Shown here: positions 3,862-22,169 of the stretch, piece after piece
How positions within the stretch are numbered: the stretch's first letter is position 1
Layout of the letters: every line of letters begins with the position of its first letter
Origin: a virus
Length of the DNA stretch: 39,112 nucleotides
Direction: 5' to 3' (one strand)
Virus record (IMG/VR): IMGVR_UViG_3300031825_000044
Coordinates: 1 to 39,112 of that record
The notes under the pieces: generated by a model
The model's input: only the letters and a program-made list of their open reading frames with translations
What the model was told of the DNA's origin: nothing
The model's database searches: none
Translations under genes and position numbers: made by a program

Positions 3862-4932
3862 ATGGGCGCCTACTACAACGAGATCGAGCCATATGCAGCC
3901 CAGTGGCTGCGCAACCTGATTGCCGATGGCCATATCGCGCCAGGCGACGTAGACGAGAGAGATATTCGAGATGTTCGACCAGACGACCTTCGCGGATACA
4001 CCCAGTGCCACTTCTTCGCAGGAATCGGAGTCTGGTCACTCGCGCTCCGTCGTGCCGGCTGGGCCGATGATCGACCTGTTTGGACCGGTTCCTGTCCGTG
4101 CCAACCTTTCTCCGCGGCAGGCGCAGGACTTGGCTTTGCTGACGAGCGGCACCTCTGGCCGTTCTGGTACCACCTCATCAGCGAGTGCCGCCCTCCAGTC
4201 GTCCTTGGAGAACAGGTTGCGAGCAAGGACGCAGATCCTTGGGTCGACCTTGTACACGATGACATGGAAGCCGTGGATTACGCCTTCGGGACGCAGCCGT
4301 TCCCGGCTGCGGGCGTCGGTGCGCCGCACATCCGCGACAGAAACTACTGGCTTGGCGTCGCCCTGGGCGACGCCAAGCGCGAGGGACTGGCATTCGGCAA
4401 GCGGCTCTCCCGAGTTTCTGGAGGGCAGGCTGGCTCAACCGCGCGGGAAGCCATTGAGCGAGCAGGTGTTCACACTATGCGGCTGGCCGACACCGGCCGC
4501 AGGCGAATTCATACCGAAGGACCTGGACAGATTGCGAGAGCGTCGTCAGGAGTGCAAGGACAGAGTGGGCAACGGCAATGGCTTCGGCTTGACGTTGGGG
4601 CAGGCAGCGCCGTTGCTGGCGGGCTGGCCGACGCCAACCGCGACGGATGCGAGTCGCGGGGATCTACCGCCTCGCCCGCACGACACGGGAATTCCACTGG
4701 GGCAACGGGTCGCGATGATCGACACGTCGCAGCCGGCCCGATTAACGGCCTCTGGAGAGCTGCTGACTGGCTCCTGTGCCGGGATGGAAAGTGGCGGCCA
4801 GTTGAACCCGGCACACAGCCGCTGGCTCATGGGGCTTCCGCCCGAGTGGGACGACTGCGCGCCTACGGCAATGCCATTACCGCGGAAGCCGCGCGCGTCT
4901 TCATCGAAGAAGTAATGGAGTGCCTGCCATGA
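3862..4932 (+). CDS. DNA (cytosine-5) methyltransferase, phage type (356 aa, frame +1)
   Basis: Motifs: I FAGIG (4015-4029); IV PCQPFS (4096-4113); VI GEQV (4207-4218); VIII HIRDR (4327-4341); X GNAI (4867-4878). N-terminus is [16 protein letters not shown]. The central 135 aa are G/R/A/S low-complexity. Confidence 0.85.
3971..4915 (+). CDS. Nested alternative-frame ORF (314 aa, frame +2) with W(A/P)TP repeats and an LNPxxSRWLMGxPxEW motif
   Basis: ATG 3971 is preceded by GAGAGAGA. The frame is stop-free for 945 nt entirely inside the MTase ORF. Motifs: WATPSARD (4364), WPTPAAGE (4484), WPTPTATD (4625), [16 protein letters not shown] (4802-4849). Central composition is balanced and protein-like. 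Expression is unproven. Confidence 0.45.
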
Positions 4933-5696: not shown

Positions 5697-5915
5697 ATGA
5701 GCAACATGACACTATCGCCAGATGAATTGAAAGAACTGACGCATAGGTGCCGTCCCGGTGCGCAGGCGCGTGCGCTTCGGGCTATGGGTATCGAGCACAA
5801 GGTGAGACCAGACGGCAGCGTGGCCGTATTGCGGTCGCACGTTGAGGGGCAGATGGGTGCGCCGAATGACACTCGCCAGCCCGCTGCGTGGGAACCGAAC
5901 TGGAGTGCGGCCTGA
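5697..5915 (+). CDS. DUF4224-like small protein, probable excisionase/recombination directionality factor
   Basis: 72 aa. LSPDELKELTHRCRPGAQARALRAMGIEHKVRPDGSVAVLR matches the DUF4224 pattern commonly found directly upstream of phage integrases. Its TGA overlaps the integrase ATG. Confidence 0.6.
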   Translation: MSNMTLSPDELKELTHRCRPGAQARALRAMGIEHKVRPDGSVAVLRSHVEGQMGAPNDTRQPAAWEPNWSAA

Positions 5916-6967
5916 TGCCACGTCCGCGTAACAAGGAGAATCAGGGCCTGCCGACGCGCTGGCGGCGGCGCCGTGGCGCCTACTACTATCAGGTCCCGCC
6001 CGGCCTGGAAGCGATGTGGGATGGGAAAAAGGAATTCCGGCTCGGCGCGTCGCTGCCAGAAGCGTACAAGGTCTGGGCCGAACGCCTGGCCAGCGCCGAG
6101 GACACGCGCACGATCGCTCAACTGCTGGACCGGTACTCGCTCCAGGTCGTGCCCACGAAAGCCCCCAGCACGCGAGTGCAGAACCAGGTGGCGATCAAGC
6201 GCCTGCGCGCCGTGCTCGGCAACGCCCCCATCTCCGGGGTCCGGCCCCAGGTGATCTACCAGTACATAGAGCACCGGCAATCGAAGGTCGCAGCGCGCCG
6301 CGAGATTGAGATCCTGTCGCACGCTTTCACCAAGGCGGTCGAGTGGGGAATCATCGATAGGCACCCGTTCAAGGGCGAGGTGCGCCTGGCCAGCGAGAAG
6401 GCGCGCACGCGCTACGTGGAGGACTGGGAGATCGTCGAATGCCTGTCGCTGGAATCGAAACGCAAAGCGGGTAGCGTCCTCGCGGTGCAGGCCTACATCC
6501 GGGTCAAGCTGATCACTGGGCTACGCCGCGGGGATCTGCTGCGCCTGACTATGTCCGACCTGCAGGAGGACGGCATTCACGTCACGCCGGCGAAGACGGC
6601 CGGCAGCACCGCAAAGCGGATCATCCTGGCCTGGACGGACGAGCTGCGTGCCAGCGTCGAAATGGCCAAGCAGGCGAGGCCGGTGCGTATCTCACCCTGG
6701 CTCTTCTGCAATCGCGACGGGCAGTCCTATCTCAATGAGGAAACGGGCCGGGCCGGCGGGTGGGATTCGATGTGGCGCGGCTTTATGGAGCGCGTGCTGA
6801 AGGAGACGGAGGTCAAAATGCGCTTCAACGAGCACGACCTGCGCGCGAAATGCGCAAGCGATGCAGCTACGGTGGAGCATGCGCGGGCGCTGATGGCCCA
6901 CGCTGACAGCAGGATCACGGACCGGGTGTATCGGCGCAAACCTGAGTTGGTGCAGCCTCTGCGGTAG
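5915..6967 (+). CDS. int: tyrosine recombinase / phage integrase (350 aa)
   Basis: ATG 5915 overlaps the upstream TGA. MPRPRNKENQGLPTRW.... Catalytic pattern: TGLRRGDLLRL (Arg), HDLRAK (H-x-x-R), HADSRITDRVYRR (His...Tyr). The track ORF 5888 is a GTG extension. Confidence 0.9.
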   Translation: MPRPRNKENQGLPTRWRRRRGAYYYQVPPGLEAMWDGKKEFRLGASLPEAYKVWAERLASAEDTRTIAQLLDRYSLQVVPTKAPSTRVQNQVAIKRLRAVLGNAPISGVRPQVIYQYIEHRQSKVAARREIEILSHAFTKAVEWGIIDRHPFKGEVRLASEKARTRYVEDWEIVECLSLESKRKAGSVLAVQAYIRVKLITGLRRGDLLRLTMSDLQEDGIHVTPAKTAGSTAKRIILAWTDELRASVEMAKQARPVRISPWLFCNRDGQSYLNEETGRAGGWDSMWRGFMERVLKETEVKMRFNEHDLRAKCASDAATVEHARALMAHADSRITDRVYRRKPELVQPLR

Positions 6968-7978: not shown

Positions 7979-8281
7979 TCAGCTCCCGAGGAAGCGCCGC
8001 ATCAGTGCCTTCAACGCTTCGGGGATCTGCTGCATAGCATTGATGGCCACAGCAAAACCGAAGGCGGTAGAAGTCGCCACAGCGAGCACCGCGGTCCAGC
8101 TGCGCATGTCGAGATGGAAATACTCGATAGCGGCCAGGCCGATGATTGTGCCGAGGGCAATGCTCAGGATGAACGACCCCGCGCGCTGCCACCTGTTCCC
8201 CGGAAGATTGCGAAGCGAAAGCAGCCCGCCAACAAGGACGCCTGCCCCCAGCTTGAGCCAGGTGGTCTGATCGTCTGTCAT
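7979..8281 (-). CDS. holin-like membrane protein (100 aa, about 3 TM helices)
   Basis: ATG 8281 overlaps the endolysin stop (ATGA). MTDDQTTWLKLGAGVLVGGLLSL...AGSFILSIALGTIIGLAAI...WTAVLAVATSTAFGFAVAI...LMRRFLGS. The track ORF is an upstream extension. Confidence 0.7.
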   Translation of the reverse strand: MTDDQTTWLKLGAGVLVGGLLSLRNLPGNRWQRAGSFILSIALGTIIGLAAIEYFHLDMRSWTAVLAVATSTAFGFAVAINAMQQIPEALKALMRRFLGS

Positions 8282-8760
8282 GGTTTCCCCGTCAAGAATT
8301 GAGATTGCTCGCTGGCGCGCCGGGCGACCAACCCGGGGAGCACGCGTCCCGCGGCGCGATTCCACTTCGGAAACTCGGCCGCCGCGCCGATGCGGTCGTT
8401 CGCATTGATCTTGCGCAGCATGGTGGATGGCTGACCGCTCTTGAGCGTCACGAAACCATCCTTCACGCCCTTGGCGCCAGCCCCCACGTTCAGCACGAAT
8501 GACACCAGTGCGTCGAACTGGGCCTGAGTGAGTTCCACGACCACCGCGCGATTGACCACTCGCTCAGCATCAACCACATCCGCAGCGAGGTAGGCGTTGG
8601 CCTGCGCCTCGTTGATCCGCAGCCCCTTGTACACGTCACGGCCGGTATGGCCGTATCCGATGGTCCAAGGCGCACCATGCGTTCCTGGATCGGGGTACGC
8701 CTCAAGCACCAAGCCTTCCCGTACCTTGATAGCCTGCACGCCCGCGGCCGACGTTTTCAT
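8278..8760 (-). CDS. endolysin, GH24 (T4/lambda-R-type) lysozyme
   Basis: 160 aa. IKVREGLVLEAYPDPG...WTIGYGHT is the E-x8-D-x5-T-type catalytic pattern. QFDALVSFVLNVG is also typical. Confidence 0.9.
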   Translation of the reverse strand: MKTSAAGVQAIKVREGLVLEAYPDPGTHGAPWTIGYGHTGRDVYKGLRINEAQANAYLAADVVDAERVVNRAVVVELTQAQFDALVSFVLNVGAGAKGVKDGFVTLKSGQPSTMLRKINANDRIGAAAEFPKWNRAAGRVLPGLVARRASEQSQFLTGKP

Positions 8761-9447: not shown

Positions 9448-11592
9448 TCAGGAAATAGTTGCGAAGACCTGCGACCAATCATTGTTGAGCACATTGTTGC
9501 TGCCGGTATTAAGACGAGACCAGCCGATCATGATTTTCCCTGCTGCTTGGGCAGGAACATCGTTCTTAACGAACGTGCCGAAAAACCAAGTTCCGGAAGT
9601 CGGCATAGCCGTGGCATTTGTCCATCCCAGGACATTTTCGGTACGGATCGCAGCATCATTCGTGGCGCCCTGATTCGGATAGCCGGTCCAGTCGCAGTTT
9701 CGTACGATGCATCCTTTGCCAAAAGAAACAAGATTTCCTGGCTCATTTCGGAAAGCGCGTAGTGTAGTTCCGTCATATGGAGTATCGACTTCGTATGCGA
9801 CATCTTCCTGTGTCAAGCCAGCGCGACCACCGTCATGGCATTGTATCGAAAAGGCCGTTGCACCTACCGCCCCATAAATCCATCCGGTAAATCTTCCGCG
9901 GGAGCATCCCGATACGCGAATACCGGCCAATGTGTAATTGGAAACCTCCGCACGGATAGAGAAATCGATAACCGTATTGGAGGGGCCGACAACAACGCCA
10001 TTCGTTACGTTAGTAACGGTCCAATCTGCGTCGATGCGCTGAGAATAATCATGATCTGGACCTGCTCCGCGCGTGCTGTTATACGACAGCACGCCTTTGA
10101 CCTTAAGATCCGCCACGCGCGTGAAAGGAGTAGAAGATAGTGATGCCCCCGAAGTACCTGTCTTCAGGATGTTGCAGTTCTCAATTAGAATATTGAAACA
10201 GTTCCAGTCACGAGCCGAATCATCACCAGAGATAGATTTACCGAAGACGCCAAGTCCCGAAGTTCCAGCTGTCATAATATCTGCGTAACCAATACGTATA
10301 TTGGCGCATGTCTGATAGCCGTGGTCTGGCTCGATATCAACACCCCCAGGCATTGTGAATCCACCGACAATGCCGCCTACATTAATAGACCGGACCGTAT
10401 CAATGTCGATGATCGTTCCTGAAATGATGGAGATAGCATTACGGCCATCATCTGCAGAATTGAATGCGTTGAATGCGCCGATCTTAATCTGCGTAGAGTT
10501 ATCGCTATTGGACAGCCAATCTTTTTGGCCGATGTAGAGCCCGTCTGCGCGGATTTCCTTGACCATCATGTCGGGGATGTACACATTCCTTGCGCCAGCA
10601 AAACCAACACAATGAATGTGCTCATTGTCAGACATGGCGGAGCGATTTCCATCCCATTTGGGATTCATTATCACACCATCGCAGTCTTTAATGACAAGGC
10701 CAACCCACGAGCCACCGAAATTTATGTTTCCGCCGTCCGGCTTTAGCTTGCACCAGCCATCGAAAATCAGAATGGTGTTGTTGTACGTCGAATCATTGAG
10801 CATGATCCCTGCCGATAGGAAAATTTTTCCGGCAGGAAAAATAATCGCACTGCCTTTGTTAGCATCGATGGCTGCCTGAATTTTTGCAGTGTCATCAGTA
10901 ATGCCGTCTCCCACTGCTCCATAGTCGGTCACGCTGACGAACTCACGCAACTTGGATTGGACTGCTCGACTGACTGCGCCCGTACCGGCCTGAAGGAATG
11001 AGAGTTTTGAACTTTTGATCGCAGCATTGAGCGCGACAGAGGCATCCGTCACAGTGCCGGCACCCGGTGTTCCGATTGCAATCGTATTGCCGATCTTGAC
11101 CGTGACTAGAGAAACTCCAATAGGGATCGGGTCATTGAACTCGAGCGTAGTGCCATCAAGGGACTTGACTTGATCGTCAGCCTGAAAGACGCCATCGAAG
11201 AATATCCACACATTCCCAAGGGATCCAGCTCCGATGCTCAATGTCAGAGTCGTCGTTACGCCAGGCGTAAAATCCACTCCTGCGATGAACATGTCATCAG
11301 TCATGTTCCCGGTCAGGCCGGCGTTGGGATCTTCCGTGATACGATCCCAGATCAGATTGCCGTCCGAATCCTTGACAACCTGACGATAAGTGCCACTGCC
11401 CCAGATGATGGCCTCCCCGCGAGAGTCGAGGATCACAGGATTAGTATTGAGGATGGTTTGCTCAGGATCCTGCCACGTATTTTTGAGTGTGGAAGTATTC
11501 GGGATGTAGAAAAAAACCTGTCCCCCGGCAAGCGGATTGCCGTTGTTATCATCGAAATGCGTTACAGCATTGGGGAGAATCGAAGCAGTCAT
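9448..11592 (-). CDS. tailspike with a right-handed beta-helix (pectate-lyase-3-like), probable polysaccharide depolymerase (714 aa)
   Basis: The N-terminus MTASILPNAVTHFDDNNGNPLAGGQVFFY is a typical fibre/spike N-terminal motif. VTDYGAVGDGITDDTAKIQAAIDA is the hallmark of pectate_lyase_3-type beta-helices. The track start 11628 is a GTG extension. The region is visibly more A/T-rich than its neighbours. Confidence 0.85.
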   Translation of the reverse strand: MTASILPNAVTHFDDNNGNPLAGGQVFFYIPNTSTLKNTWQDPEQTILNTNPVILDSRGEAIIWGSGTYRQVVKDSDGNLIWDRITEDPNAGLTGNMTDDMFIAGVDFTPGVTTTLTLSIGAGSLGNVWIFFDGVFQADDQVKSLDGTTLEFNDPIPIGVSLVTVKIGNTIAIGTPGAGTVTDASVALNAAIKSSKLSFLQAGTGAVSRAVQSKLREFVSVTDYGAVGDGITDDTAKIQAAIDANKGSAIIFPAGKIFLSAGIMLNDSTYNNTILIFDGWCKLKPDGGNINFGGSWVGLVIKDCDGVIMNPKWDGNRSAMSDNEHIHCVGFAGARNVYIPDMMVKEIRADGLYIGQKDWLSNSDNSTQIKIGAFNAFNSADDGRNAISIISGTIIDIDTVRSINVGGIVGGFTMPGGVDIEPDHGYQTCANIRIGYADIMTAGTSGLGVFGKSISGDDSARDWNCFNILIENCNILKTGTSGASLSSTPFTRVADLKVKGVLSYNSTRGAGPDHDYSQRIDADWTVTNVTNGVVVGPSNTVIDFSIRAEVSNYTLAGIRVSGCSRGRFTGWIYGAVGATAFSIQCHDGGRAGLTQEDVAYEVDTPYDGTTLRAFRNEPGNLVSFGKGCIVRNCDWTGYPNQGATNDAAIRTENVLGWTNATAMPTSGTWFFGTFVKNDVPAQAAGKIMIGWSRLNTGSNNVLNNDWSQVFATIS

Positions 11593-11773
11593 GGAAATAG
11601 CCAAAGGCAGCAAAAGGCGCACACGCACCGATTTCTGTCTCTGCCCTAGGAGACTGCTTCACGGGCTTTCCGACGATTTAAGGCTCGACTAGACCTTCAT
11701 CATTATGACCGACGAAACATTGCGCATCATCGGAACCACTGTAGGTTCAGCCGTTATCTATGGCATCCGTTGT

Positions 11774-13960
11774 TCATTGGCTACCAGGAAGCAACGAAGG
11801 AACCAATCCGGGGGCGAGCAGCGTCCCATAATCACGTACTACATTGCCTATAGGCTGGGCAAATTGTGGGCGTTGTGTCAAAAGCGCCGCCGCTAGACGT
11901 TGGCCGACCTGCGTATAAGGCAGAGATCCCACACCAATACTACCCAGGGTCGCCAGCGTAGGTCCAGGCGCTGATACGAGACCTGCGCCAATGGAGCCAG
12001 GCGCCAGCAATGCCATCAGACCACGCCCCGCGGTTCCAGAATCCGGATATTTGCTCCCTAGGACACGTTGACCGGCTCCGGACAGATCCTGCATTAGGGC
12101 GTTCCCGGTTGCTGTGGCTCCCTTACCAACAGATTTATCAGCCGAACGCACCGCACTCTGCAGTTGCGCGGCAGTGAAAATGCCTTCATTGTTCATTGCA
12201 CCAGTTGATGCCGCAGCCGTGCGTAGCCGAACAAAATTGGCCCATGCCTGATTAGCATCACTCAGCTTCTTGGCAAGATCAGGCGCGTTCACTCGCGTCA
12301 GGTTGCTATCGACAGCATCGCGCAGTGCACTTACTGCAGCTCCGAGTTGGCGGTTATCGAATGAGGCATCCCCAAGATAACCCTTGGCAGTGCGGGCTAG
12401 TTCGCTCTGGACACCCTTCAAATCAGTGCCATCCATTATATTCTGCGGCCCTAGCTTCCCAAAGATTTGGGTGCGCAAAATATTCATGAACGTTTTTTGT
12501 TGCTGTTCAGGGAGACCCTGTGCCATCTGTCCGAGTTGCGTCACATCAGACTGGAACCGCGGATCGACCTTCAACTGCATCTTGGGCAGCACATCGTCAT
12601 AGACTTTTCCGATTTCCTGCCCAACCTTTTCGATACCAGATTGGCCGATTTCTCCGCTGAACTTCTTGCCGATAGGTGCCAGCGCTTCGTTATAGGCAGC
12701 CCGGTTGAAATCATTCACCGCGCGCTGCTGGGCGTTTTTGATCATATCTCCCAGCACTGGAACGCTACTCAACTTCGCTTCAGTACGTGCAGCACCTCCG
12801 CCGAGGATCTGGCCTGGTGTTGGCGTCACTCCTTTGCTCATCAATGTTTGCACATCCCCAGAGACATTCGGAGAGATCATGTTTCCGGCGAGGCGCGCCA
12901 GTGGAGAAATAATACCTCCCACAGCTGCGCCAGTCCCAATCTGCTTCAACTTGTCAACGGCAAAATTCTGGCTATCAGGAGAGACGGGCGTCAATGCGGC
13001 ATTTGCCGCGCCAAGACCTGCTCCAATGCCTGCGGCGCCCCCCAAAGTCCTAGCGACTGGCGCTGCGGCAGCCAATGGCGCCGTGGCCACGATGGAGCCG
13101 CCGATGTCGCCGGCCGTGGCCGTCAGAGGGTTGGTCTGCTGGTAAGGATCAAACTCACCGCCGATCTTGCGCAACCCAGCATTCGCATCATTGACTAGCC
13201 AGTTACCCGCCTTCTCTGCACCAAGAGCCGATAGCCCCTTCCCGATCAATTGCTGCCCACCTAGCATGATGCTGCCGAAGCCATGCCCAAGACCGGCACC
13301 GAAAGACTCGATTTTCCCGGGCGCTTCTGCGGTAGGCGCGGCTGGGGTCTGTTGTGGAACAGATGTGGGCTTTGCTGCAGGCGATTCCGACGGCGCCTTG
13401 GTGAAGGCCGATAGGATAGCGTCATCGCTATCTGGGCGTGTCGCCGCATTTCCTGGAGCAGCACCACCTTTCGAGAAAGCGGCCAGAATCGCATCATCGT
13501 CGGTTGCGCTAGGTTGCGGCGCAGCCGGCACACCGGGGAGCATGGCCGGTTTGGACGGCGCGCCCTGGAGCCGCGCCATCACCTGATTGGCATATGGATG
13601 GGCGCCCTTGGCAACATCTGACGAGTTTGGCCCTTGCTTATAGGCAATCAGCGCCTTCACCGGATCATTGAACTGGTCAAGTTGCTGTGACAAATACCAA
13701 GTGCCAACGTCTACTCCGATCTGCGGCTTCAGCAGATCCTGCATGCTGTACTTGGTACCATTTGCCTTGTTGTAATCAGCCAAAGCCGCTTGGCGGACTT
13801 GCATGGCCCCATATGCACCTTGTCCGCCACCTTCCGTATTCACTGCGCCCGGATTGCCGCTCGATTCCTGTTGAATGACAGAGGAAGATAACGCGGGATC
13901 GACGTTCCAGCGCTGTGCGGAGGCTTGGATGAATGGCGAGAGATCAGGTTGTTTTGCCAT
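11774..13960 (-). CDS. internal virion/ejection protein with an N-terminal lytic transglycosylase (SLT) domain (728 aa)
   Basis: VIQQESSGNPGAVNTEGG..GAYGAMQV...VGTWYL is the E-S...GLMQ...Y pattern of SLT domains. A long Ala/Gly-rich C-terminus follows. Confidence 0.85.
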   Translation of the reverse strand: MAKQPDLSPFIQASAQRWNVDPALSSSVIQQESSGNPGAVNTEGGGQGAYGAMQVRQAALADYNKANGTKYSMQDLLKPQIGVDVGTWYLSQQLDQFNDPVKALIAYKQGPNSSDVAKGAHPYANQVMARLQGAPSKPAMLPGVPAAPQPSATDDDAILAAFSKGGAAPGNAATRPDSDDAILSAFTKAPSESPAAKPTSVPQQTPAAPTAEAPGKIESFGAGLGHGFGSIMLGGQQLIGKGLSALGAEKAGNWLVNDANAGLRKIGGEFDPYQQTNPLTATAGDIGGSIVATAPLAAAAPVARTLGGAAGIGAGLGAANAALTPVSPDSQNFAVDKLKQIGTGAAVGGIISPLARLAGNMISPNVSGDVQTLMSKGVTPTPGQILGGGAARTEAKLSSVPVLGDMIKNAQQRAVNDFNRAAYNEALAPIGKKFSGEIGQSGIEKVGQEIGKVYDDVLPKMQLKVDPRFQSDVTQLGQMAQGLPEQQQKTFMNILRTQIFGKLGPQNIMDGTDLKGVQSELARTAKGYLGDASFDNRQLGAAVSALRDAVDSNLTRVNAPDLAKKLSDANQAWANFVRLRTAAASTGAMNNEGIFTAAQLQSAVRSADKSVGKGATATGNALMQDLSGAGQRVLGSKYPDSGTAGRGLMALLAPGSIGAGLVSAPGPTLATLGSIGVGSLPYTQVGQRLAAALLTQRPQFAQPIGNVVRDYGTLLAPGLVPSLLPGSQ

Positions 13961-15522
13961 TACTGGCTCCCGGGCATCGAGATGACGCCGCTACGTACCA
14001 GATTGCCGAGATCGGATTTGAACTTGCCGAGCGCTCCGGTTTTTTGCTGTCGCGCGAGAAAATCTTTTTGCTGAGTCGGACTCATCTCCACGAAGGCAAA
14101 TGCATCGGGGCTGACATTCTTGTTCCACTGCGACTGCCACTGATTGAACTTGTCCGGCGTGTTACCTGAGTTCTGCCAGGCATAGTCCTGCGCGGCGCGC
14201 ATCTTCTCCGCGGCAATCGTCTTCACTAGGATGTCATCGTTGGCGAGCTTCGAGATATTCGGGTTGGCATTTCCCGTCACCGCGGCATTCAGACGCGCAT
14301 CCGTTCCGGTGCCGAGCGAGCCCGACACCGACGATGCATAGTTCGTCAGGATCTTCTTAAACTCATCGAAGTCCTTCACCTCGCCAGTCCAGCCGATTTT
14401 CTTGGCTACATCCGGTGCTAGCGCATTAGCGAACGACTTAGCCGTATTGCGCCAGTCCGAGCCCGGGCCCGTATTGATCCCACCCAATGCATCGCGTGCC
14501 TGATTCAGAAGACTGATACGCATCGGCACATCTGCCGCCGAGTCATGGAGTTGTTGTGCCGCCGTAGCCGATTGGCTGGCTTGTGCACTGGCGCCGGATG
14601 CTTGCGTCGCCTGTGCTGCTGGGGAAAGACCCGTTTGCAATGCTCCCGCAGGAACCGGAGCAGCGCTAGGGGCGCCCGCGGGCGTTCCCTCTGCTCCCGG
14701 GAAACGGCCCGTATAGGCCCCGCCTGCTCCCGGAGCGCCGCCACCACCGCCCTGTAGCATTGCAAGACGCTGGGCGCGCGTCATGGTATAGGGCGTGCCT
14801 TCTGGCGTGACGCCCGGGACTTCTGCGGAGGCTTCGCCAGGCGTCAACGTGTTTTGCAGAGAACCGGCGATGCTGGGCTTGCCAGTCAGCGGGTCGATGT
14901 TCAGCACCTGCGTCTGACCACCAGTATTCAGTACCTGCGTGCGCGGCAGCATGGCTTGAATCTTGGCTTCCCCCGACAGCGAATTCAGGTAATGCTGCTT
15001 GATCCACTCGGCTTGTGCAGCCGGGTCGCCGGGAATGCTGGCTACTTCTCGCTGTGCTTGCTCGAGCGGCAACGTACCAGATGCCAAGGCTTGACCCATT
15101 GCACCGATGATCTCGTTTTTCAGGTCGCTTTTGCCATAGTTCGGCGAAGACATGAGAGAGCCAATCCGATTGCGAATATCGGTCTGTTGCTTCAGTGCCA
15201 GTTCCAGTTTGCCGGCGTCATATGACAATTGCTGATTGCGCTGAGAGGCGATCTTCGCCATGAAATCAGGCAGGAATGCCCCTGCACCGCCCTGCGTGGC
15301 GAGGGCTTGAAGCCTGCCGAAATCCACCTGGCCTGTTTGTGGGTCGGTTGCCTGCTGGTAGGCCTGAGAGATGATCTGATTGGCCCCCAACTGCTGCGAG
15401 GCAGACTGCAGGCCGATAAGCCCGCGCGCGGTATCCACGGTCTGACCAAGTTGAGCCAGCCCTGTTTGCGGAGGCTTGATGCCGAGCGGAATGGATGCGT
15501 CGATCTGGGCCATGAGGTTCAA
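13960..15522 (-). CDS. internal virion/ejection-type protein (520 aa)
   Basis: Track ORF. It is Gln/Ala/Gly-rich and coupled at both ends (ATGA at 15519-15522; TAATG at 13958-13962). The call rests on its position between ejection proteins. Confidence 0.7.
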   Translation of the reverse strand: MNLMAQIDASIPLGIKPPQTGLAQLGQTVDTARGLIGLQSASQQLGANQIISQAYQQATDPQTGQVDFGRLQALATQGGAGAFLPDFMAKIASQRNQQLSYDAGKLELALKQQTDIRNRIGSLMSSPNYGKSDLKNEIIGAMGQALASGTLPLEQAQREVASIPGDPAAQAEWIKQHYLNSLSGEAKIQAMLPRTQVLNTGGQTQVLNIDPLTGKPSIAGSLQNTLTPGEASAEVPGVTPEGTPYTMTRAQRLAMLQGGGGGAPGAGGAYTGRFPGAEGTPAGAPSAAPVPAGALQTGLSPAAQATQASGASAQASQSATAAQQLHDSAADVPMRISLLNQARDALGGINTGPGSDWRNTAKSFANALAPDVAKKIGWTGEVKDFDEFKKILTNYASSVSGSLGTGTDARLNAAVTGNANPNISKLANDDILVKTIAAEKMRAAQDYAWQNSGNTPDKFNQWQSQWNKNVSPDAFAFVEMSPTQQKDFLARQQKTGALGKFKSDLGNLVRSGVISMPGSQ

Positions 15523-16298
15523 CCGTATGCGTTCGGGTCGTTAAAATAGGTGCTGGGGTCGTTTGCGTTATATTGCGTCGCCCACGACCCCGAACTAAAA
15601 GGGTTGTTGTTGTTCCTCAGCAGCGAATAGAGCCCCACTCCCGAGCCGATGGAGCCAATGCCGCCACTGATGGCGTTCGCAGCACCGACTTGGCCCGCTG
15701 CCTGAGCATTCGCGCCTCCGACCAACATTCCGCCAGCATTGGCGGCAGTTTGCAATCCTGCATCCCCAACGCCTGCCGCCGAATTCTGGCCCAGTCCAAC
15801 TAAACCAGCGAACCGGTTGTATTGATCAGAGTTAATGCCGTAGTTCGTCATGAACTGCTGCAGCGCATTCTTATATTGCTGCTGGTAGGTCTGGTCTGCT
15901 AATCCAGTCGTATAGTCAGAAATGCCTTTCAACTGTGCGCCCGAGAGATTCAACCCTTTTGCCGCCGCCGCATTATCTACACCCTTAAGCCCCTGCTGAA
16001 GGGTAAATTGATAGCCCGGCGTCTGTTCGAGTTGTTTTTGCGATGGGTTAAAGTTGAATTGCTGCGTGAGTCCACCTCCGTTCAGGAGGGCTTGCAATCC
16101 AGAAATGGAATTGCTGCCAAGATCCATGTACGGCTGCAGATTCTGCTGCACCTGCTGGAACTGCTGCCATTGCAGGTCAGCAGCACGATTTGCTGCGTCG
16201 GCTTGCGTGCTGGCCGCATCCTTAGCGCCTTTCGCGCCGAGCGCACCGCTGGCGACACCGCCAACGATTGCCCCTCCGGCTACTGCTGCTGCGACCAT
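15519..16298 (-). CDS. Gly/Gln/Ala-rich internal virion-type protein (259 aa)
   Basis: Track ORF with GGAG 7 nt upstream of ATG 16298. N-terminus is MVAAAVAGGAIVGGVASGALGAKG. Confidence 0.7.
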   Translation of the reverse strand: MVAAAVAGGAIVGGVASGALGAKGAKDAASTQADAANRAADLQWQQFQQVQQNLQPYMDLGSNSISGLQALLNGGGLTQQFNFNPSQKQLEQTPGYQFTLQQGLKGVDNAAAAKGLNLSGAQLKGISDYTTGLADQTYQQQYKNALQQFMTNYGINSDQYNRFAGLVGLGQNSAAGVGDAGLQTAANAGGMLVGGANAQAAGQVGAANAISGGIGSIGSGVGLYSLLRNNNNPFSSGSWATQYNANDPSTYFNDPNAYG

Positions 16299-16310
16299 TT
16301 CAGTTCTCCA

Positions 16311-16763
16311 TTACAGCCATTTTTCGTACATCGTCTCGACCGGCTTGAAGTCGAGATAGCGGAACAGCGCAGAGGCATCGTGCTGAACCTTGCTGCCCAT
16401 CGCCCAGCGCTTCACGCCGCGACGGCGCAATTCCTTTTCCACGAAACGCATCATCCTGACGCCAGCCATGCCGGTGCGCTTGTCCTCCCGCACGAAGAAA
16501 ATATCAGGCGAGCAGGTGAGGCACGAGCGGTAGTGCAACCCTGGCGCGATGAATGCCACGAGATAGGCCACAATTGCCCCTTCCTCGCGCCCGATCACCA
16601 TCATCAGCGAGCCATCTGCCTCGCGCGCGCGGTAGACTTCAATCATCGGCTCTAGCGGGACGTCATGGTCCTTGTGCGTCGAAATCTCACCGTAGTGCGC
16701 ATGCAGCAACGGCAGGAGTTCTTCGTAGACATCAGAGAACCGCTCGACCATGAACGTAATCAT
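16311..16763 (-). CDS. GNAT-family N-acetyltransferase (150 aa)
   Basis: FVREDKRTGMAGVRMMRFVEKELRRRGVKR is the R-x-x-G-x-G/A acetyl-CoA-binding motif A context. Size and beta-alpha pattern are typical of GNATs. Its ATG shares one nt with the upstream stop (TGATG). Confidence 0.75.
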   Translation of the reverse strand: MITFMVERFSDVYEELLPLLHAHYGEISTHKDHDVPLEPMIEVYRAREADGSLMMVIGREEGAIVAYLVAFIAPGLHYRSCLTCSPDIFFVREDKRTGMAGVRMMRFVEKELRRRGVKRWAMGSKVQHDASALFRYLDFKPVETMYEKWL

Positions 16764-17338
16764 CAGAACCTCAGATCAATGACAAGGTGGATGCGATCAT
16801 TCGCGCTGTTGTTCAATACTTCATGCTCGATAGCATTCTGAAACCACCACACTTCGCCTTCCCTCATCCATACCGTTTCATCGCCACAGCGGAAGGTGTT
16901 GCCCGGTTCCGACTGGATGACGATGTGATAGCGGTCCCAATATTCGGCATGCCATTTCGAGTCAGCATGCGGGAAAATCTGGCCGCCTGGAATGATGCGA
17001 TTGATCATGCATCGCCCGAGCCGTGTCGCGCCAGTCGCTGTCATCAGCGCCATGATTAGCGCGCGCGCCTCGGGTAGTTCGTTGATCTCTGCGCGCCACG
17101 GGCATTCATGCAGGTCATGGCCAGCAAGTTTGTTCTGTTGATAGAGTTGTAGTTCTTCATCGGTTTCTACCGGCACATGGTCCTGAAACCGAAGATAGAT
17201 CGTGTCCGTCTCACCGAATGGCCCTTGAGGGAACTTGCGCAGAAAATCGTCTGCCTTCCACAGTTCCGGCTTCCTGTAAATAGCATTCAGTAGAGGCTTC
17301 ACATTCATCCCCTCGGCGATTTTCAAGAAGTTGCGCAT
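16763..17338 (-). CDS. cupin-fold Fe(II)/2-oxoglutarate oxygenase, aspartyl/asparaginyl beta-hydroxylase-like (191 aa)
   Basis: IIPGGQIFPHADSKWH...WWFQNAIEHEVLN is a His-x-Asp...His facial-triad arrangement, as in the Asp/Asn beta-hydroxylase (PF05118) family that includes LpxO. It is coupled to its neighbours by 1-nt overlaps at both ends. Confidence 0.65.
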   Translation of the reverse strand: MRNFLKIAEGMNVKPLLNAIYRKPELWKADDFLRKFPQGPFGETDTIYLRFQDHVPVETDEELQLYQQNKLAGHDLHECPWRAEINELPEARALIMALMTATGATRLGRCMINRIIPGGQIFPHADSKWHAEYWDRYHIVIQSEPGNTFRCGDETVWMREGEVWWFQNAIEHEVLNNSANDRIHLVIDLRF

Positions 17339-17679
17339 CAGCGGATGCCCCCGACTTGATAGACCTCACTTGCAGTCGGCGTGATCGGCGTCCCCGTATT
17401 GTTCGAGAACGTGACAGCGATCTGGTTCGAAGCGCTGGCCCGCACGTTGACGATGCCGAGTCCTGCCTGTGCAGTTGGCTTGCTCACGTACACCACATCA
17501 CCCACGCGCACACCAGCCACCGTGAAAGTCTGTTCGGCAGTCGTATTCGCTGCGACCTGTGCAGGCGAGAGCGTCACGTTGATGCGATAGATCGAAGTCA
17601 CCTTATCAGCCGGTGCCTCAGTAAAAGACAGCGACGCGACAGTAGGTTCATCGGTGGCCACGCCAAGGAATTTAGTCAT
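17338..17679 (-). CDS. hypothetical virion-module protein (113 aa)
   Basis: Track ORF. The N-terminus MTKFLGVATDEP is shared with the 178-aa protein at 17847..18383. Confidence 0.7.
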   Translation of the reverse strand: MTKFLGVATDEPTVASLSFTEAPADKVTSIYRINVTLSPAQVAANTTAEQTFTVAGVRVGDVVYVSKPTAQAGLGIVNVRASASNQIAVTFSNNTGTPITPTASEVYQVGGIR

Positions 17680-17682
17680 CGT

Positions 17683-17850
17683 TTAACTCCCAGAGATTTC
17701 GTTCTGCGGCACCATCTCGCCACGCTGATACACCGTGTACGCTTGCCCATCGCAGACGATGGCGATGGCGTCTGCGGGAAAGGGTTGCGTTGGGGCCAGA
17801 AGCAGGTCATCGCCCTTCGCGCCGATGTTCACTACCGGGATCTGGATCAT
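17683..17850 (-). CDS. small hypothetical protein (55 aa), not in the ORF track
   Basis: ATG 17850 overlaps the upstream TGA (ATGA). MIQIPVVNIGAKGDDLLLAPTQPFPADAIAIVCDGQAYTVYQRGEMVPQNEISGS. TAA is at 17683-17685, 3 nt before the next start. It fills an otherwise empty gap. Confidence 0.6.
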   Translation of the reverse strand: MIQIPVVNIGAKGDDLLLAPTQPFPADAIAIVCDGQAYTVYQRGEMVPQNEISGS

Positions 17851-18383
17851 GGGTTCAGCAACTCCACGGTGTAGGACTCCAACGTAAGTGTGTCGGTACT
17901 GACGGCCAAGGTCCCGGTGATCGTCAGGTTTTGTGCTGCCGACATGTCAACGGTGGTGGCAACCACAGTGCCGGTTGACCCGGCGAACGAATTGCTTCCA
18001 CCCGCCCCGGATACTTGGTTCGCCATCGAATTGCGCGCGCGCGTATTTACCTGATGCTGCAGACTGGCGGATGCAGAATTTCCGAAGAAACCGATGGTGG
18101 TTCCTCCCAATCGAATCGTCCCGGTCTTCGTGTTGGCGTTATTTGTCATCGACCATTGCGTCGTGACGCGCAAGGCGCCGCTCAGGCCCATCGCCCCGGC
18201 CGGGATCGGGATCGTCGCGAAGACCGTCTCGGACGTGGTGCCCGTCACCGACGCGGGGACGGCGGATTGGGCGAGGACGAGCGATACACCGCTAGTACGC
18301 GCAATGCGACCACCAGTCATCTGCGGATTGAGTAACGTAGCCCCTTCGATGGGATCAACTGCGACACCTAGAAACCTAGTCAT
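17847..18383 (-). CDS. hypothetical virion-module protein (178 aa)
   Basis: Track ORF. N-terminus is MTRFLGVAVDPIEG. It is T/S/G-rich and beta-type. Confidence 0.7.
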   Translation of the reverse strand: MTRFLGVAVDPIEGATLLNPQMTGGRIARTSGVSLVLAQSAVPASVTGTTSETVFATIPIPAGAMGLSGALRVTTQWSMTNNANTKTGTIRLGGTTIGFFGNSASASLQHQVNTRARNSMANQVSGAGGSNSFAGSTGTVVATTVDMSAAQNLTITGTLAVSTDTLTLESYTVELLNP

Positions 18384-18386
18384 AGA

Positions 18387-18728
18387 TCAGCTCCCAGAAG
18401 TTTCATAAACGCCACCCATGATCGTCACGGCAGTTGCTGTATCAGCCAATGCCTGAAGGGTCATGCCGGGCTCTAGTTGCAGACCGATACATTGCGGCGG
18501 CACATAGGTCTGTCCCGGGGGCAGTGAATAGGCGGACACGAGCATGTTGCCCGCAGAAGCGGAGCCGCTCGAGGGAACGCGATGTACCGTTACCTTGACA
18601 ACACCCGCCGTTGTATTGGTAAACGACAGGTTATTGACGGTCCCGACCGTTCCGGATGGCGCCGTGTAATATGGGGCCGCCGAGGTGGTCAGTTGTGCCG
18701 CGAGGATTGCCTTCGGAATCCGTTGCAT
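18387..18728 (-). CDS. hypothetical virion-module protein (113 aa)
   Basis: Track ORF, 3 nt from both neighbours. Confidence 0.7.
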   Translation of the reverse strand: MQRIPKAILAAQLTTSAAPYYTAPSGTVGTVNNLSFTNTTAGVVKVTVHRVPSSGSASAGNMLVSAYSLPPGQTYVPPQCIGLQLEPGMTLQALADTATAVTIMGGVYETSGS

Positions 18729-18731
18729 TTG

Positions 18732-19274
18732 TTACCCCAACAGTAAGCCCTTGATGTAGACCTTCGTCACACCAACAGGAATCGGTGCGGTGAATGTCAA
18801 TGTCAGGCCCACAAGAGAAGAAATCTGGTCATCGCCTTGAAACACGCCATCGAAGTACACCCATAGCCGCGGAATAGCGCCAAAGACCTTTGTCAGTGTC
18901 AGCGCTGTCGTTGTGCCAGGCGTGAAGTCGGTACCTGCCGTGAACGTCTTATCCACGATGTCGACCTGCACGCCCGCGGGCGCGAAGATCATTTCTAGCA
19001 GTGCTTCTTGGCGGTTCGGTTGCGCCAGCGTTGCCTCGGTGGCCAATACATCGCGCGCCGTGTCAGTAGATCCAGCAATGCCAAAGGTCTGTTCCACGCT
19101 GAACACATCATCCAATGTGATGCTTGTAGGCGTGTCTCCGCCGCCACCACCAGTCCGACGCCAAAGTTGTATCAGGAACAGCAACCATGCCTCCGTAATG
19201 ACGCCGGTCTTTGGATCGGCAATCGGCGCATTCACGAGAGGAACGTCACTTTGCAGGTTAGCCACGACTGTCAC
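18732..19274 (-). CDS. tail-associated protein (180 aa) sharing a module of about 65 aa with the tailspike
   Basis: A GTG start at 19274 overlaps the upstream TGA (GTGA). The track ORF extends to 19337 inside the upstream gene. The C-terminus FTAGTDFTPGTTTALTLT...WVYFDGVFQGDDQISSL...PIPVGV parallels tailspike residues FIAGVDFTPGVTTTLTLS...WIFFDGVFQADDQVKSL...PIPIGV. Confidence 0.6.
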   Translation of the reverse strand: MTVVANLQSDVPLVNAPIADPKTGVITEAWLLFLIQLWRRTGGGGGDTPTSITLDDVFSVEQTFGIAGSTDTARDVLATEATLAQPNRQEALLEMIFAPAGVQVDIVDKTFTAGTDFTPGTTTALTLTKVFGAIPRLWVYFDGVFQGDDQISSLVGLTLTFTAPIPVGVTKVYIKGLLLG

Positions 19275-20695
19275 TCGTTGTTCTTGTTGACCTGAACCCA
19301 AGCACCCGATAGCGCTGTGCGCACCGGCGCTGACCACCAGAGCTCAAATACTCGGTCGCGGGCCATCCCAAGCCGCTGGAATTGCAGTGATTTGATGTAC
19401 TCCCCTTCTCGGCCTAGGCTCGTCTCGATAGCATTCCCCCATGACTTGCCGCGGGTGTCGCTCCAGCGAAGATACAGAGGCACTTCGACGTTGCCCGCGC
19501 CATTGCCCACTTCCATGTCGGCAATGAATTCGCGATAGCTCAGGCGACTGGAATCATCATCCACGCCGTGATAGAAGCCGCGTAGCCGTGGAATCGGCTG
19601 TCCATTGTCCAGATAGACCTCTGGCTCTACTGCATAGAGATTGCCATTCTCGAAATCTCCCACGATGCGGCGCCCATATAACAGGGCATAGCAGTTGGAG
19701 CGATGGCGCTGGAACTCGCCGTTCTCGTCGATAGACAGCCATTCGCACCATTGCTCGGTAGACAGGTCATAGCACCATGTCTTCTGCGCCGATGGGAAGG
19801 TGATCACATAGAAGGTATGGCCAAGACTTTGGAAGGTGTAAGCGAAGGCATCGTCCACCGTGTCATAGCCAGCGATCTCGTTGTCCATCGCGAACGTGGA
19901 AATCTTCGTTGCCTGAAACTGTTGAGCACGGCAAATGATCCGGTCGCCTTGCTCCGAGCGCGCGAGCCAACAGAAATCTCCATCCATCTGTGCGATGGTA
20001 TTGGCATTCATGCATCCATACTGCATGAACACACCCGGCAGGCGCTCGAATGGAAATGCCGTGTTACCGGCGTTGAACCACACTTCGCTAGTCAGTTGGC
20101 CAAAGAGATAGAGGTAGCGGCGCGCGACACCGACACCAACCACCTTGTCAGGGAATCCATTCTTGGATGCGAAATCAGTCGCGTCGAAGCTTGCCTGATT
20201 GTTCAGCGAGATATACCACTGGCTGGTATTGGGTCGATTGAGGACAAAGAACCCATCCACCATATCGATGTAGTCAGCGCCGTAGAACGCACCCTGATTG
20301 ATCAGCGCGAACGAATCATCAGCCAGCGTCACCTGATAGCCGTTCGGCGTGCCGTCGACCACGATCAGAGTCGTGCCGTTGTCGACCATATGCACGATGC
20401 CTTGGTACGATCCAAGTTGCCCAAGGACAGTCAATGACATATCGGAGGAAATGGCATACATCGTGTCGCCGCAGACTCCATAGCCGCGGTCATTGGTCGC
20501 CCAATAGAGCCCTCGCCAGCCGCTGGCGGTCTCTGGACTTGCTTGCGCAACTCGAAGCAGACCCGGCATTGGGTACAGCATGTACGGAAACGGGGAGTCC
20601 TTCGGGTTCGGCTCCATATACAGGTTCACCGACCGTTGAGCGCTCGCCAACACACTGCGCGCTTCGTATGCCCCAATCGTGAGCGCGGCTTTCAT
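19271..20695 (-). CDS. P22 gp10-like packaged-DNA stabilisation / tail hub protein (474 aa)
   Basis: Size (P22 gp10 is 472 aa), position after the adaptor, and the C-terminal pattern QFQRLGMARDRVFELWW...ALSGAWVQV, which compares with P22 LWKRVGRIRRLIGFKL...TLSGCQIRL. Confidence 0.7.
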   Translation of the reverse strand: MKAALTIGAYEARSVLASAQRSVNLYMEPNPKDSPFPYMLYPMPGLLRVAQASPETASGWRGLYWATNDRGYGVCGDTMYAISSDMSLTVLGQLGSYQGIVHMVDNGTTLIVVDGTPNGYQVTLADDSFALINQGAFYGADYIDMVDGFFVLNRPNTSQWYISLNNQASFDATDFASKNGFPDKVVGVGVARRYLYLFGQLTSEVWFNAGNTAFPFERLPGVFMQYGCMNANTIAQMDGDFCWLARSEQGDRIICRAQQFQATKISTFAMDNEIAGYDTVDDAFAYTFQSLGHTFYVITFPSAQKTWCYDLSTEQWCEWLSIDENGEFQRHRSNCYALLYGRRIVGDFENGNLYAVEPEVYLDNGQPIPRLRGFYHGVDDDSSRLSYREFIADMEVGNGAGNVEVPLYLRWSDTRGKSWGNAIETSLGREGEYIKSLQFQRLGMARDRVFELWWSAPVRTALSGAWVQVNKNNE

Positions 20696-21852: not shown

Positions 21853-22122
21853 TCAGGATTTCGCTTCAGAGATGAGTTGTTTCAGCTTTTCCACGCCGGT
21901 GTTGGCATGCGGATCCAGCCCTAGTGCACGCGCTTGCTCGAGCAGTGCAGCCTTGTCGGCTTGTGCAGTGGCGTCGCCCTCTTGCTCAGGCTCTTTCGGG
22001 CCGACGACAACAGCTTCTTCCTCCGCGCTGTTGACCAGCAACATCGAGCCATCGGCCAACGTCACCCACTTCGGGAACTCTTGAAACACATACTCGGAGG
22101 TGAATTCGCGGTTGTTGTGCAT
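21853..22122 (-). CDS. hypothetical protein (89 aa) with a HeH/Rho-N-like C-terminal helix pair
   Basis: Track ORF with AAGGAA upstream. The C-terminus is KAALLEQARALGLDPHANTGVEKLKQLISEAKS. Confidence 0.65.
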   Translation of the reverse strand: MHNNREFTSEYVFQEFPKWVTLADGSMLLVNSAEEEAVVVGPKEPEQEGDATAQADKAALLEQARALGLDPHANTGVEKLKQLISEAKS

Positions 22123-22135
22123 GACTGCTTTCCTT

Positions 22136-22169
22136 CGAAAACAGGGGCGCCCCCGTTAAGAGACGCCCC
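22136..22169 (-). terminator. intrinsic terminator/attenuator just downstream of the coat gene
   Basis: The minus strand reads GGGGCG-TCTCTTAACGGGGG-CGCCCC followed by TGTTTTCG. It sits between the coat stop (22212) and the next ATG (22122). Confidence 0.6.

Follow-up and report, generated by a model that had tools for sequence, protein, structure and literature searches.

Why should a phage keep genes for two enzyme-like proteins at the head of its ejection-protein operon? The question is raised by IMG/VR virus record IMGVR_UViG_3300031825_000044, whose positions 1 to 39,112 form the 39,112-nt stretch analysed here (the window), a nearly complete temperate podophage genome. On its minus strand, a stand-alone Fe(II)/2-oxoglutarate (2OG) oxygenase of Pfam family PF05118 (191 aa, 16763..17338; HYD) is followed by a GNAT-fold protein (150 aa, 16311..16763; GNAT) in the slot of internal virion protein A (IVP-A), and this in turn by a P22 gp7-like ejection protein (259 aa, 15519..16298; IVP-B). 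A first-pass annotation of the sequence had described the two genes as translationally tied into the operon, and had offered three roles for them: modification of virion or ejection proteins, delivery with the DNA to act on host targets, and modification of the envelope. The reading frames and junctions are exactly as it had placed them, and the translational coupling is borne out. The stop codon of a 113-aa open reading frame (ORF) and the start codon of HYD overlap by 1 nt at 17338 in a TGATG (17336..17340, minus strand), the stop codon of HYD and the start codon of GNAT do the same at 16763 (16761..16765, minus strand) with a GAGG 7 nt upstream, and a 12-nt spacer, tggagaactgaa, bearing a GGAG ribosome-binding site (16299..16310, minus strand) leads from the GNAT stop codon to the ATG of IVP-B. 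We tentatively read HYD and GNAT as a functionally coupled, cytoplasmic, late enzyme pair of the ejection module, which may well tailor IVP-B or another ejection protein before packaging.

HYD matches Pfam PF05118 (Asp_Arg_Hydrox) with an E-value of 8.5e-17 and 61.9 bits (cut-off 22.6), and its AlphaFold2 (AF2) model, with a pLDDT of 89, has the double-stranded beta-helix (DSBH) fold. In Foldseek the model is matched with probability 1.0 to the L-proline cis-4-hydroxylase 4p7w (E 6e-10, TM 0.67/0.47), to AspH and to 1e5r; a profile of HYD homologues searched against the PDB finds the same 4p7w at 1e-10, together with proline 3-hydroxylase 1e5r and human AspH, so that 4p7w is the best match in both sequence and structure. 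The H124-x-D126...H172 triad, R50 and N176 are invariant in the HYD homologues examined, which come from three clades and reach down to 23-28% identity, and R182 is nearly invariant (at least 90% conserved across the three clades). Because the invariant triad and R182 align with the iron triad and the 2OG arginine region of 4p7w, predicted catalytic competence is almost certainly retained in HYD, and by sequence comparison R50 and N176 are invariant residues specific to this family.

The known relatives differ from HYD in informative ways. Both 4p7w and 1e5r share with it the HxD...H triad and the C-terminal Arg; however, they are about 280-290 aa long and act on free amino acids, whereas HYD has 191 aa, is 15-17% identical to them and lies in a virion-assembly operon. 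Its assignment as a free L-proline cis-4-hydroxylase or nonproteinogenic amino acid hydroxylase (TIGR04531) was rejected on a score of 17 bits against a cut-off of 300 and on its length of 191 against about 280 aa. Human AspH (5jqy, 5apa) has the Pfam family and the DSBH fold in common with HYD and, being a protein side-chain hydroxylase, sets a precedent for protein substrates. AspH has a two-His iron site and requires its TPR domain for binding EGF domains; HYD, in contrast, bears a full HxD...H triad and no extra domain. The acyl-chain 2-hydroxylases LpxO and OlsC also belong to PF05118, but they are membrane proteins of about 260-300 aa, whereas no transmembrane segment was found in HYD (maximum 19-residue Kyte-Doolittle hydropathy 1.16). 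Membership of the LpxO/OlsC group was therefore rejected, with a score of 13.5 bits against the OlsC cut-off of 450; NCBIfam matches to LpxO appear in distant HYD relatives only, at 21-24 bits against a cut-off of 500. The LpxO-like envelope role offered by the first-pass annotation is accordingly disfavoured. Partial, more distant HYD homologues occur in non-structural regions of Pseudomonas phage Itty13 and the cyanophage Synechococcus phage BUCT-ZZ01, and the linkage to internal virion proteins therefore holds for the full-length HYD subfamily only. Two further proteins of the wider family, P0459 (965 aa) and P0491 (582 aa), have two HYD-like domains in tandem and, after these, long C-terminal stretches of unrelated sequence, and may represent a cellular branch with a different role.

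The second protein also gives a confident model. GNAT scores 18.1 bits on Pfam Acetyltransf_1, below the cut-off of 20.7, but its relatives in DC33, Vibrio and MW202796 reach 24-32 bits, above the cut-off, and GNAT itself matches phrog_1249 ('acetyltransferase') at 2e-13. Its AF2 model (pLDDT 90) has the GNAT fold (beta1-alpha1-alpha2-beta2-4-alpha3-beta5-alpha4-beta6), and the top 50 Foldseek matches in the PDB are all GNATs; among the structural neighbours are RimI-like 4jwp and the N-terminal acetyltransferases Naa60, Naa30 and Naa50, as well as small-molecule acetyltransferases including AAC(3)-Ia. No transmembrane segment was predicted in GNAT. In BFVD the model matches phage GNATs of the IVP-A positional class (VpV262, CRP-4) and also T7-like 'host specificity protein A' (gp13) models (E ~4e-5). 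Profile and structure searches thus bear out both enzyme folds named by the first-pass annotation.

The position of GNAT is that of IVP-A, directly upstream of IVP-B, the counterpart of P22 gp7 and T7 gp14, and the gene order matches that of P22 (14-7-20-16), T7 (13-14-15-16) and epsilon15 (13-14-15...). P22 has the 151-aa gene 14 directly ahead of gene 7, T7 has gene 13 ahead of gene 14, and epsilon15 has gp13 ahead of gp14, with a RefSeq note on gp13 that cites an HHpred match to GNAT. Hardies et al. (2016; PMC4819975) reported acetyltransferase matches for T7 IVP-A and for its counterparts in many podophages, those of T7 gp13 and epsilon15 gp13 by HHpred, and also that P22 and epsilon15 have 'very standard' IVP-A homologues in this slot; a similar link to IVP-A was made for the GNAT of SIO1 in a paper on Cobavirus (PMC6775973). 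Members of the class (PF11090/phrog_308; PF11039/DUF2824/phrog_651) have 138-154 aa and stand at the head of the ejection operon, like the window GNAT, which is more canonical than gp13 or gp14 in that it matches phrog_1249 and its relatives exceed the Acetyltransf_1 cut-off. Based on fold and position, GNAT is probably this phage's IVP-A. Window-type GNATs also lie directly ahead of internal proteins without HYD in more distant phages, namely Vibrio Zobellviridae and MW202796. Unlike the window, the classical phages T7, epsilon15 and P22 have no oxygenase partner in this place.

To what extent does HYD stay with GNAT in other phages? A tblastn survey found 80 IMG/VR loci with HYD and 80 with GNAT. 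GNAT lies immediately downstream of HYD in all 75 HYD-seeded viral loci that extend far enough, HYD lies immediately upstream of GNAT in 80 of the 80 GNAT-seeded loci, and in the HYD-seeded loci a gp7-like gene comes next after GNAT wherever sequence is available. The junction between HYD and GNAT is mostly a 4-nt or 1-nt overlap. This adjacency is far beyond chance, and the placement described by the first-pass annotation is thus upheld by the synteny of related phages. HYD also has the highest median identity in the region (81%), compared with 47% for the head-closure protein Hc3, 50% for the gp7-like protein and 34% for the gp20-like protein. The gene order is the same in an isolate, Pseudomonas phage PfAn1, where identity is about 50%, and prophages of Cupriavidus, Burkholderia, Ralstonia, Paraburkholderia and Pseudomonas carry homologues. 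The group as a whole takes in 372-426 contigs of IMG/VR and, at E<=1e-30, about 385 clusters of proteins.

It is also evident that the association persists in phages of other kinds. The Limnohabitans DC33 clade, a T7-like freshwater group with T7-type portal and tail tubes, has the order TerL-HYD-GNAT-[107-129-aa protein]-portal, with a 4-nt overlap between HYD and GNAT. The 107-129-aa protein starts MGVTAAVAAVVG, its N-terminus resembling that of IVP-B, and in this clade nothing occupies the place where IVP-A usually lies, between tail tube B and the internal virion protein. HYD, GNAT and a small IVP-B-like gene therefore moved as a trio. It is worth noting that Limnohabitans phage DC33 (PQ492659; L002/L207) is placed in Inoviridae by the GenBank taxonomy; a genome with a large terminase, a T7-type portal, both tail tubular proteins (A and B) and internal virion proteins makes that classification look wrong. 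In a third clade, HYD is 24-35% identical to that of the window and stands directly ahead of an IVP-B (MPWAAAA...) or is joined to it by a small cupin gene; it occurs alone (MW202665) or with a conserved Cupin_2 protein of 102-119 aa that replaces or joins GNAT and retains the HxH...H metal motif. A 190-aa ORF upstream of HYD in MW202665 was considered as a hidden GNAT, and found no support. The third clade includes a bona fide P22-like contig, with P22 portal, coat, gp4 and gp10 followed by HYD, cupin and P22_gp7, and prophages with giant polyvalent injected proteins among the next genes. In three of these prophage or metagenome contigs (L290, L291 and L293), the giant proteins range from >2,300 to >5,200 aa and contain ART-PolyVal, InPase, Glucosaminidase and helicase-like domains; their genes lie two or three genes downstream of HYD and the cupin and close the block begun by the IVP-B-type gene.

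Fusions of the two proteins were sought among the best 150 representatives of the 385 clusters obtained in an exhaustive profile search. HYD and GNAT form a single polypeptide in six of these (P0392, P0405, P0408, P0424, P0458 and P0480), and the fused GNAT domain is of the window family, with local hmmsearch E-values of 1e-42 to 1e-48 in five of the six and of 9e-22 in P0424, which is apparently truncated; in P0405 it reaches 25.7 bits on Pfam Acetyltransf_1. The order is reversed in two others (P0430 and P0486), in which a different GNAT (Acetyltransf_3) is N-terminal to HYD, and nine more proteins are HYD-cupin or cupin-HYD fusions. Where the context can be read, the fusion genes again head an ejection-protein block: an IVP-B-type gene comes directly after P0405, and P0430, on a P22-like contig, comes after gp10 and has the gene of a cupin-containing protein between it and an IVP-B-type gene. 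One 46-kb P22-like contig (L377) carries all three enzyme types, with a GNAT-HYD fusion, a 184-aa protein ending in a cupin and an IVP-B-type gene. When two domains have fused independently, and in both orders, this is classically read as a sign that they act together, as we suggest for HYD and GNAT.

The notion that the pair is a moron, that is, an independently transcribed piece of cargo, was rejected, as the first-pass annotation had itself argued: the genes have no promoter or terminator of their own, their GC content equals that of their neighbours without anomaly, and they are fixed in the ejection operon of the relatives (75/75 and 80/80). Going upstream from the module, the first transcript boundary predicted is a strong intrinsic terminator with an 11-bp stem after the major capsid gene (22144..22169, minus strand), and no sigma-70-like promoter or intrinsic terminator was found on the minus strand between 22144 and 11629. 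A terminator-like site is also present near it on the plus strand (22108-22128), and this arrangement parallels the annotated post-capsid stem-loops of P22 and epsilon15.

What might the pair act on? The product of the next gene is assigned by phrog_598 ('DNA ejection', 2.8e-37) and by a weak match to Pfam P22_gp7. Its N-terminus, MVAAAVAGGAIVGGVASGALGAKGAK, is rich in hydrophobic Ala, Gly and Val and is the most hydrophobic stretch in the module; this N-terminus is the candidate substrate or partner of HYD and GNAT. As a separate observation, IVP-B proteins commonly begin with some 15-20 hydrophobic residues (Ala/Gly/Val) and continue with a Lys-rich 'KAxK', among them T7 gp14 (MCWAAAIPIAISG), epsilon15 gp14, the window protein (MVAAAVAGGAIVGG) and the MPWAAAA group (loci compared: the window, L167, L168, L003, L288-L293 and L002). 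P22 gp7 is without this pattern; removal of its first 20 residues by the host protein OpdA is annotated.

These results are consistent with the following sequence of events. HYD would be a predicted catalytically intact Fe(II)/2OG oxygenase that was recruited as a partner of GNAT, the putative IVP-A, and the coupled junctions would allow both to be translated stoichiometrically with IVP-B from one message. The two would then act together, probably as a physical complex, on an ejection protein that has just been made, IVP-B or another, while it is still outside the procapsid, and would themselves stay out of the virion. As for the chemistry, HYD would hydroxylate a side chain of the ejection protein, and the target of acetylation or acylation by GNAT would be an amine: the N-terminus, once Met has been removed, or a Lys in the GAKGAK region. 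The ejection protein would thereby be tuned in its solubility, its assembly or its later insertion into the membrane. Among the three roles listed by the first-pass annotation, modification of ejection proteins is the one that the comparative data support best, with the substrate standing as a candidate.

Several points weigh against this reading. First, the pyrophosphate loop of GNAT (R96-T-G-M-A-G) departs from the Q/R-x-x-G-x-G/A motif, and within the GNAT family R96 is invariant whereas the residues after it vary, in imperfect register with the motif; a Phe also occupies the position of the usual general-acid Tyr. Because of this non-canonical, variable cofactor loop and the Phe, the catalytic activity of GNAT, judged from its residues, is plausible but not assured. 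Second, direct homology of GNAT to T7 or epsilon15 gp13 or to P22 gp14 was rejected, since hhalign probabilities were at most 2.3% in single-sequence and profile-profile runs, which included a 16-sequence epsilon15-type profile and a 38-sequence GNAT profile. In PDB searches, the gp13 profile gave only a non-significant match to the acetyltransferase YjaB (E 0.32), and P22 gp14 alone gave only a weak match to a putative glyoxalase (E 0.008). As sequence and profile comparisons do not join GNAT to gp13 or gp14, it is fold and position that carry its equation with IVP-A. Third, the solved structures closest to HYD are hydroxylases of free amino acids and not of proteins. Fourth, no residue conserved in IVP-B only in the HYD-bearing phages, such as the Pro of MPW, was found, and, as the window clade starts MVAAAV, no universal target residue emerged in IVP-B. 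Finally, contig L289 has HYD without a recognisable IVP-B adjoining it, and because the related loci are phylogenetically non-independent, the real sample amounts to about 3-4 lineages and several fusion events.

The first alternative is that HYD and GNAT are assembly factors without covalent chemistry, in which the enzyme folds of the IVP-A slot (GNAT, cupin and oxygenase) serve as chaperones or scaffolds that prevent the hydrophobic N-terminus of IVP-B from coming out of solution and accompany it to the procapsid interior. The T7 gp13 family is named 'probable scaffold protein' in Pfam (PF11090). The slot is occupied by unrelated families in different phages (PMC4819975), and by a GNAT, a cupin or neither in the loci described here, and the non-canonical, variable cofactor loop of GNAT would also suit a protein that no longer catalyses. 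However, an iron triad that is invariant, and a 2OG arginine that is nearly so, at 23-28% identity are hard to explain without catalysis; the small cupins likewise retain their metal motif, and HYD is the slowest-evolving gene of the region, as is typical of an enzyme. We therefore regard a purely structural role of the pair as unlikely.

A second alternative holds that both proteins are packaged and delivered into the next host, where they modify proteins or metabolites as infection begins. It would account for the location of both genes inside the ejection-protein operon and for the company they keep in related phages, where giant polyvalent proteins with ART-PolyVal, other enzyme domains and a faint Acetyltransf_7 match are encoded just downstream. 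RimI-like GNATs described by Iyer et al. (2017; PMC5512222) are also phage GNATs tied to proteins that leave the capsid with the DNA, and are predicted to modify host proteins, but they are domains within giant injected proteins, whereas the window GNAT stands by itself as the protein of the IVP-A slot; neither a cupin nor a 2OG oxygenase is mentioned in that paper. On the other side, T7 IVP-A is required for morphogenesis yet absent from virions, as Kemp (2005) is cited in PMC4819975; HYD and GNAT are compact and globular in their models, without the extended helical or low-complexity character of their neighbours; and in the DC33 clade the pair lies between terminase and portal, away from the large internal virion proteins. 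Injection of the pair is similarly improbable.

A third alternative takes the position to be incidental and the enzymes to be host-directed or metabolic cargo. They might hydroxylate acyl chains of lipid A or ornithine lipid in the manner of LpxO or OlsC and acylate them, changing the envelope late in infection or during lysogeny, or, in another version, hydroxylate and N-acetylate a free amino acid. PF05118 does cover LpxO, OlsC and free proline hydroxylases; the best matches of HYD, in structure as in sequence, are L-proline cis-4- and 3-hydroxylases; there are weak NCBIfam matches to nonproteinogenic amino acid hydroxylase, OlsC and LpxO; and the distant PF05118 homologues of Itty13 and the cyanophage lie in non-structural regions. 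These NCBIfam matches, however, reach 13-24 bits where the cut-offs are 300-500, HYD lacks a membrane segment, the genes show neither their own promoter or terminator nor a GC anomaly, and IVP-B-type genes stay linked in different lineages, when the unit is relocated and when its genes are fused, which makes incidental cargo decidedly unlikely. The least probable of the alternatives, and in our view very doubtful, is that GNAT is a protein N-acyltransferase that, together with the hydroxylase HYD, installs a lipid-like or membrane-active group on the N-terminus of a pore-forming IVP-B, where cleavage of Met would leave Val, Pro, Gly, Ala or Cys (position 2) exposed; the hydroxyl group could then fall on the acyl chain, as with LpxO and OlsC, or on a nearby residue. 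A combination of an acyltransferase (OlsB, an N-acyltransferase) with a PF05118 hydroxylase is found in ornithine-lipid synthesis.

The rest of the module can be described briefly. Its minus-strand order is Hc3, five small ORFs, HYD, GNAT, the gp7-like protein, a 520-aa protein and a 728-aa protein. The upstream anchor is the 474-aa head-closure Hc3 or tubular-tail-B-type protein, which is P22 gp10-like (19271..20695, minus strand; phrog_578 head closure Hc3, 4.5e-103). Downstream of IVP-B lie a second ejection-type protein of 520 aa in the position of P22 gp20 or IVP-C (13960..15522, minus strand) and a third of 728 aa (11774..13960, minus strand), IVP-D-like and with an N-terminal SLT lytic transglycosylase domain (E 1e-19). 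Between Hc3 and HYD is a hypervariable block of small proteins of 113, 55, 178, 113 and 201 aa (17338..19337, minus strand); these genes vary among the related loci and include no conserved partners of the HYD/GNAT pair. For the 520-aa gp20-like protein and the small upstream proteins, no informative match was found in Pfam or PHROG, and because of this their tail or ejection label rests on position. Of the labels that the first-pass annotation gave to the neighbours, that of the gp7-like protein stands, and those of the 520-aa and small proteins are positional. Outside the module, the window encodes a DNA methyltransferase (3862-4932), an integrase (5888-6967) and an endolysin (8278-8760).

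Some features of the small genes are worth recording. The 55-aa ORF (17683-17850, minus strand) fills almost exactly the space between the 178-aa and 113-aa genes, overlapping the stop codon of the former by 4 nt and ending 3 nt short of where the latter starts; this ORF, absent from the first-pass description, is probably a real gene. The 113-aa (17338-17679) and 178-aa (17847-18383) proteins, both on the minus strand, have a common N-terminal motif (MTKFLGVATDEP / MTRFLGVAVDPIEG), as if, from their sequences, they were alternative modules on a common anchor. No homologue of the 178-aa gene was found in 80 related loci, and homologues of the 113-aa gene in other phages lie 4-6 kb further upstream of HYD. 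The only relative of the window at the DNA level among isolated phages is Ralstonia phage PQ43W, with 235 bp of 72.5% identity on the upstream 113-aa gene. In several related loci, the best tblastn match of the 726-aa tail-spike-like protein (9448-11628, minus strand) falls in or overlaps the region that matches the 201-aa protein (18732-19337), which suggests a domain common to the two.

How much of this is new? The first-pass annotation had taken the enzyme pair to be without a described counterpart in P22-like phages. This does not hold for GNAT, whose positional class, IVP-A, is already known (PMC4819975), but it does hold for the Fe/2OG oxygenase and for its coupling, and sometimes fusion, to GNAT, which appear to be new. 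An oxygenase partner at the head of an ejection-protein operon is not described in the literature searched, which yielded no paper on phage PfAn1, none on a biochemical role for gp13 and none combining a hydroxylase, an acetyltransferase and ejection proteins, and a review of ejection proteins makes no mention of acetyltransferases (PMC8954989).

The channel through which podophage DNA crosses the Gram-negative envelope is made of the internal virion proteins. That a canonical-looking GNAT is hard-wired or fused to an oxygenase predicted to be catalytically intact argues that the proteins of the IVP-A slot are real enzymes, and the arrangement of the pair suggests that ejection proteins may be covalently tailored before packaging. 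For the class of T7 gene 13 and P22 gene 14, with its reported acetyltransferase matches, HYD and GNAT provide a testable handle on biochemical function. If GNAT and HYD did install a lipid-like group, IVP-B would be a phage counterpart of the myristoylated internal penetration proteins of animal viruses, such as picornavirus VP4 and reovirus mu1, and a biochemical function would be assigned to the T7 gp13 / P22 gp14 class. If the preferred reading of a late enzyme pair that tailors an ejection protein is true, hydroxylation and acetylation would join phage virion assembly, and a step of genome delivery would be clarified.

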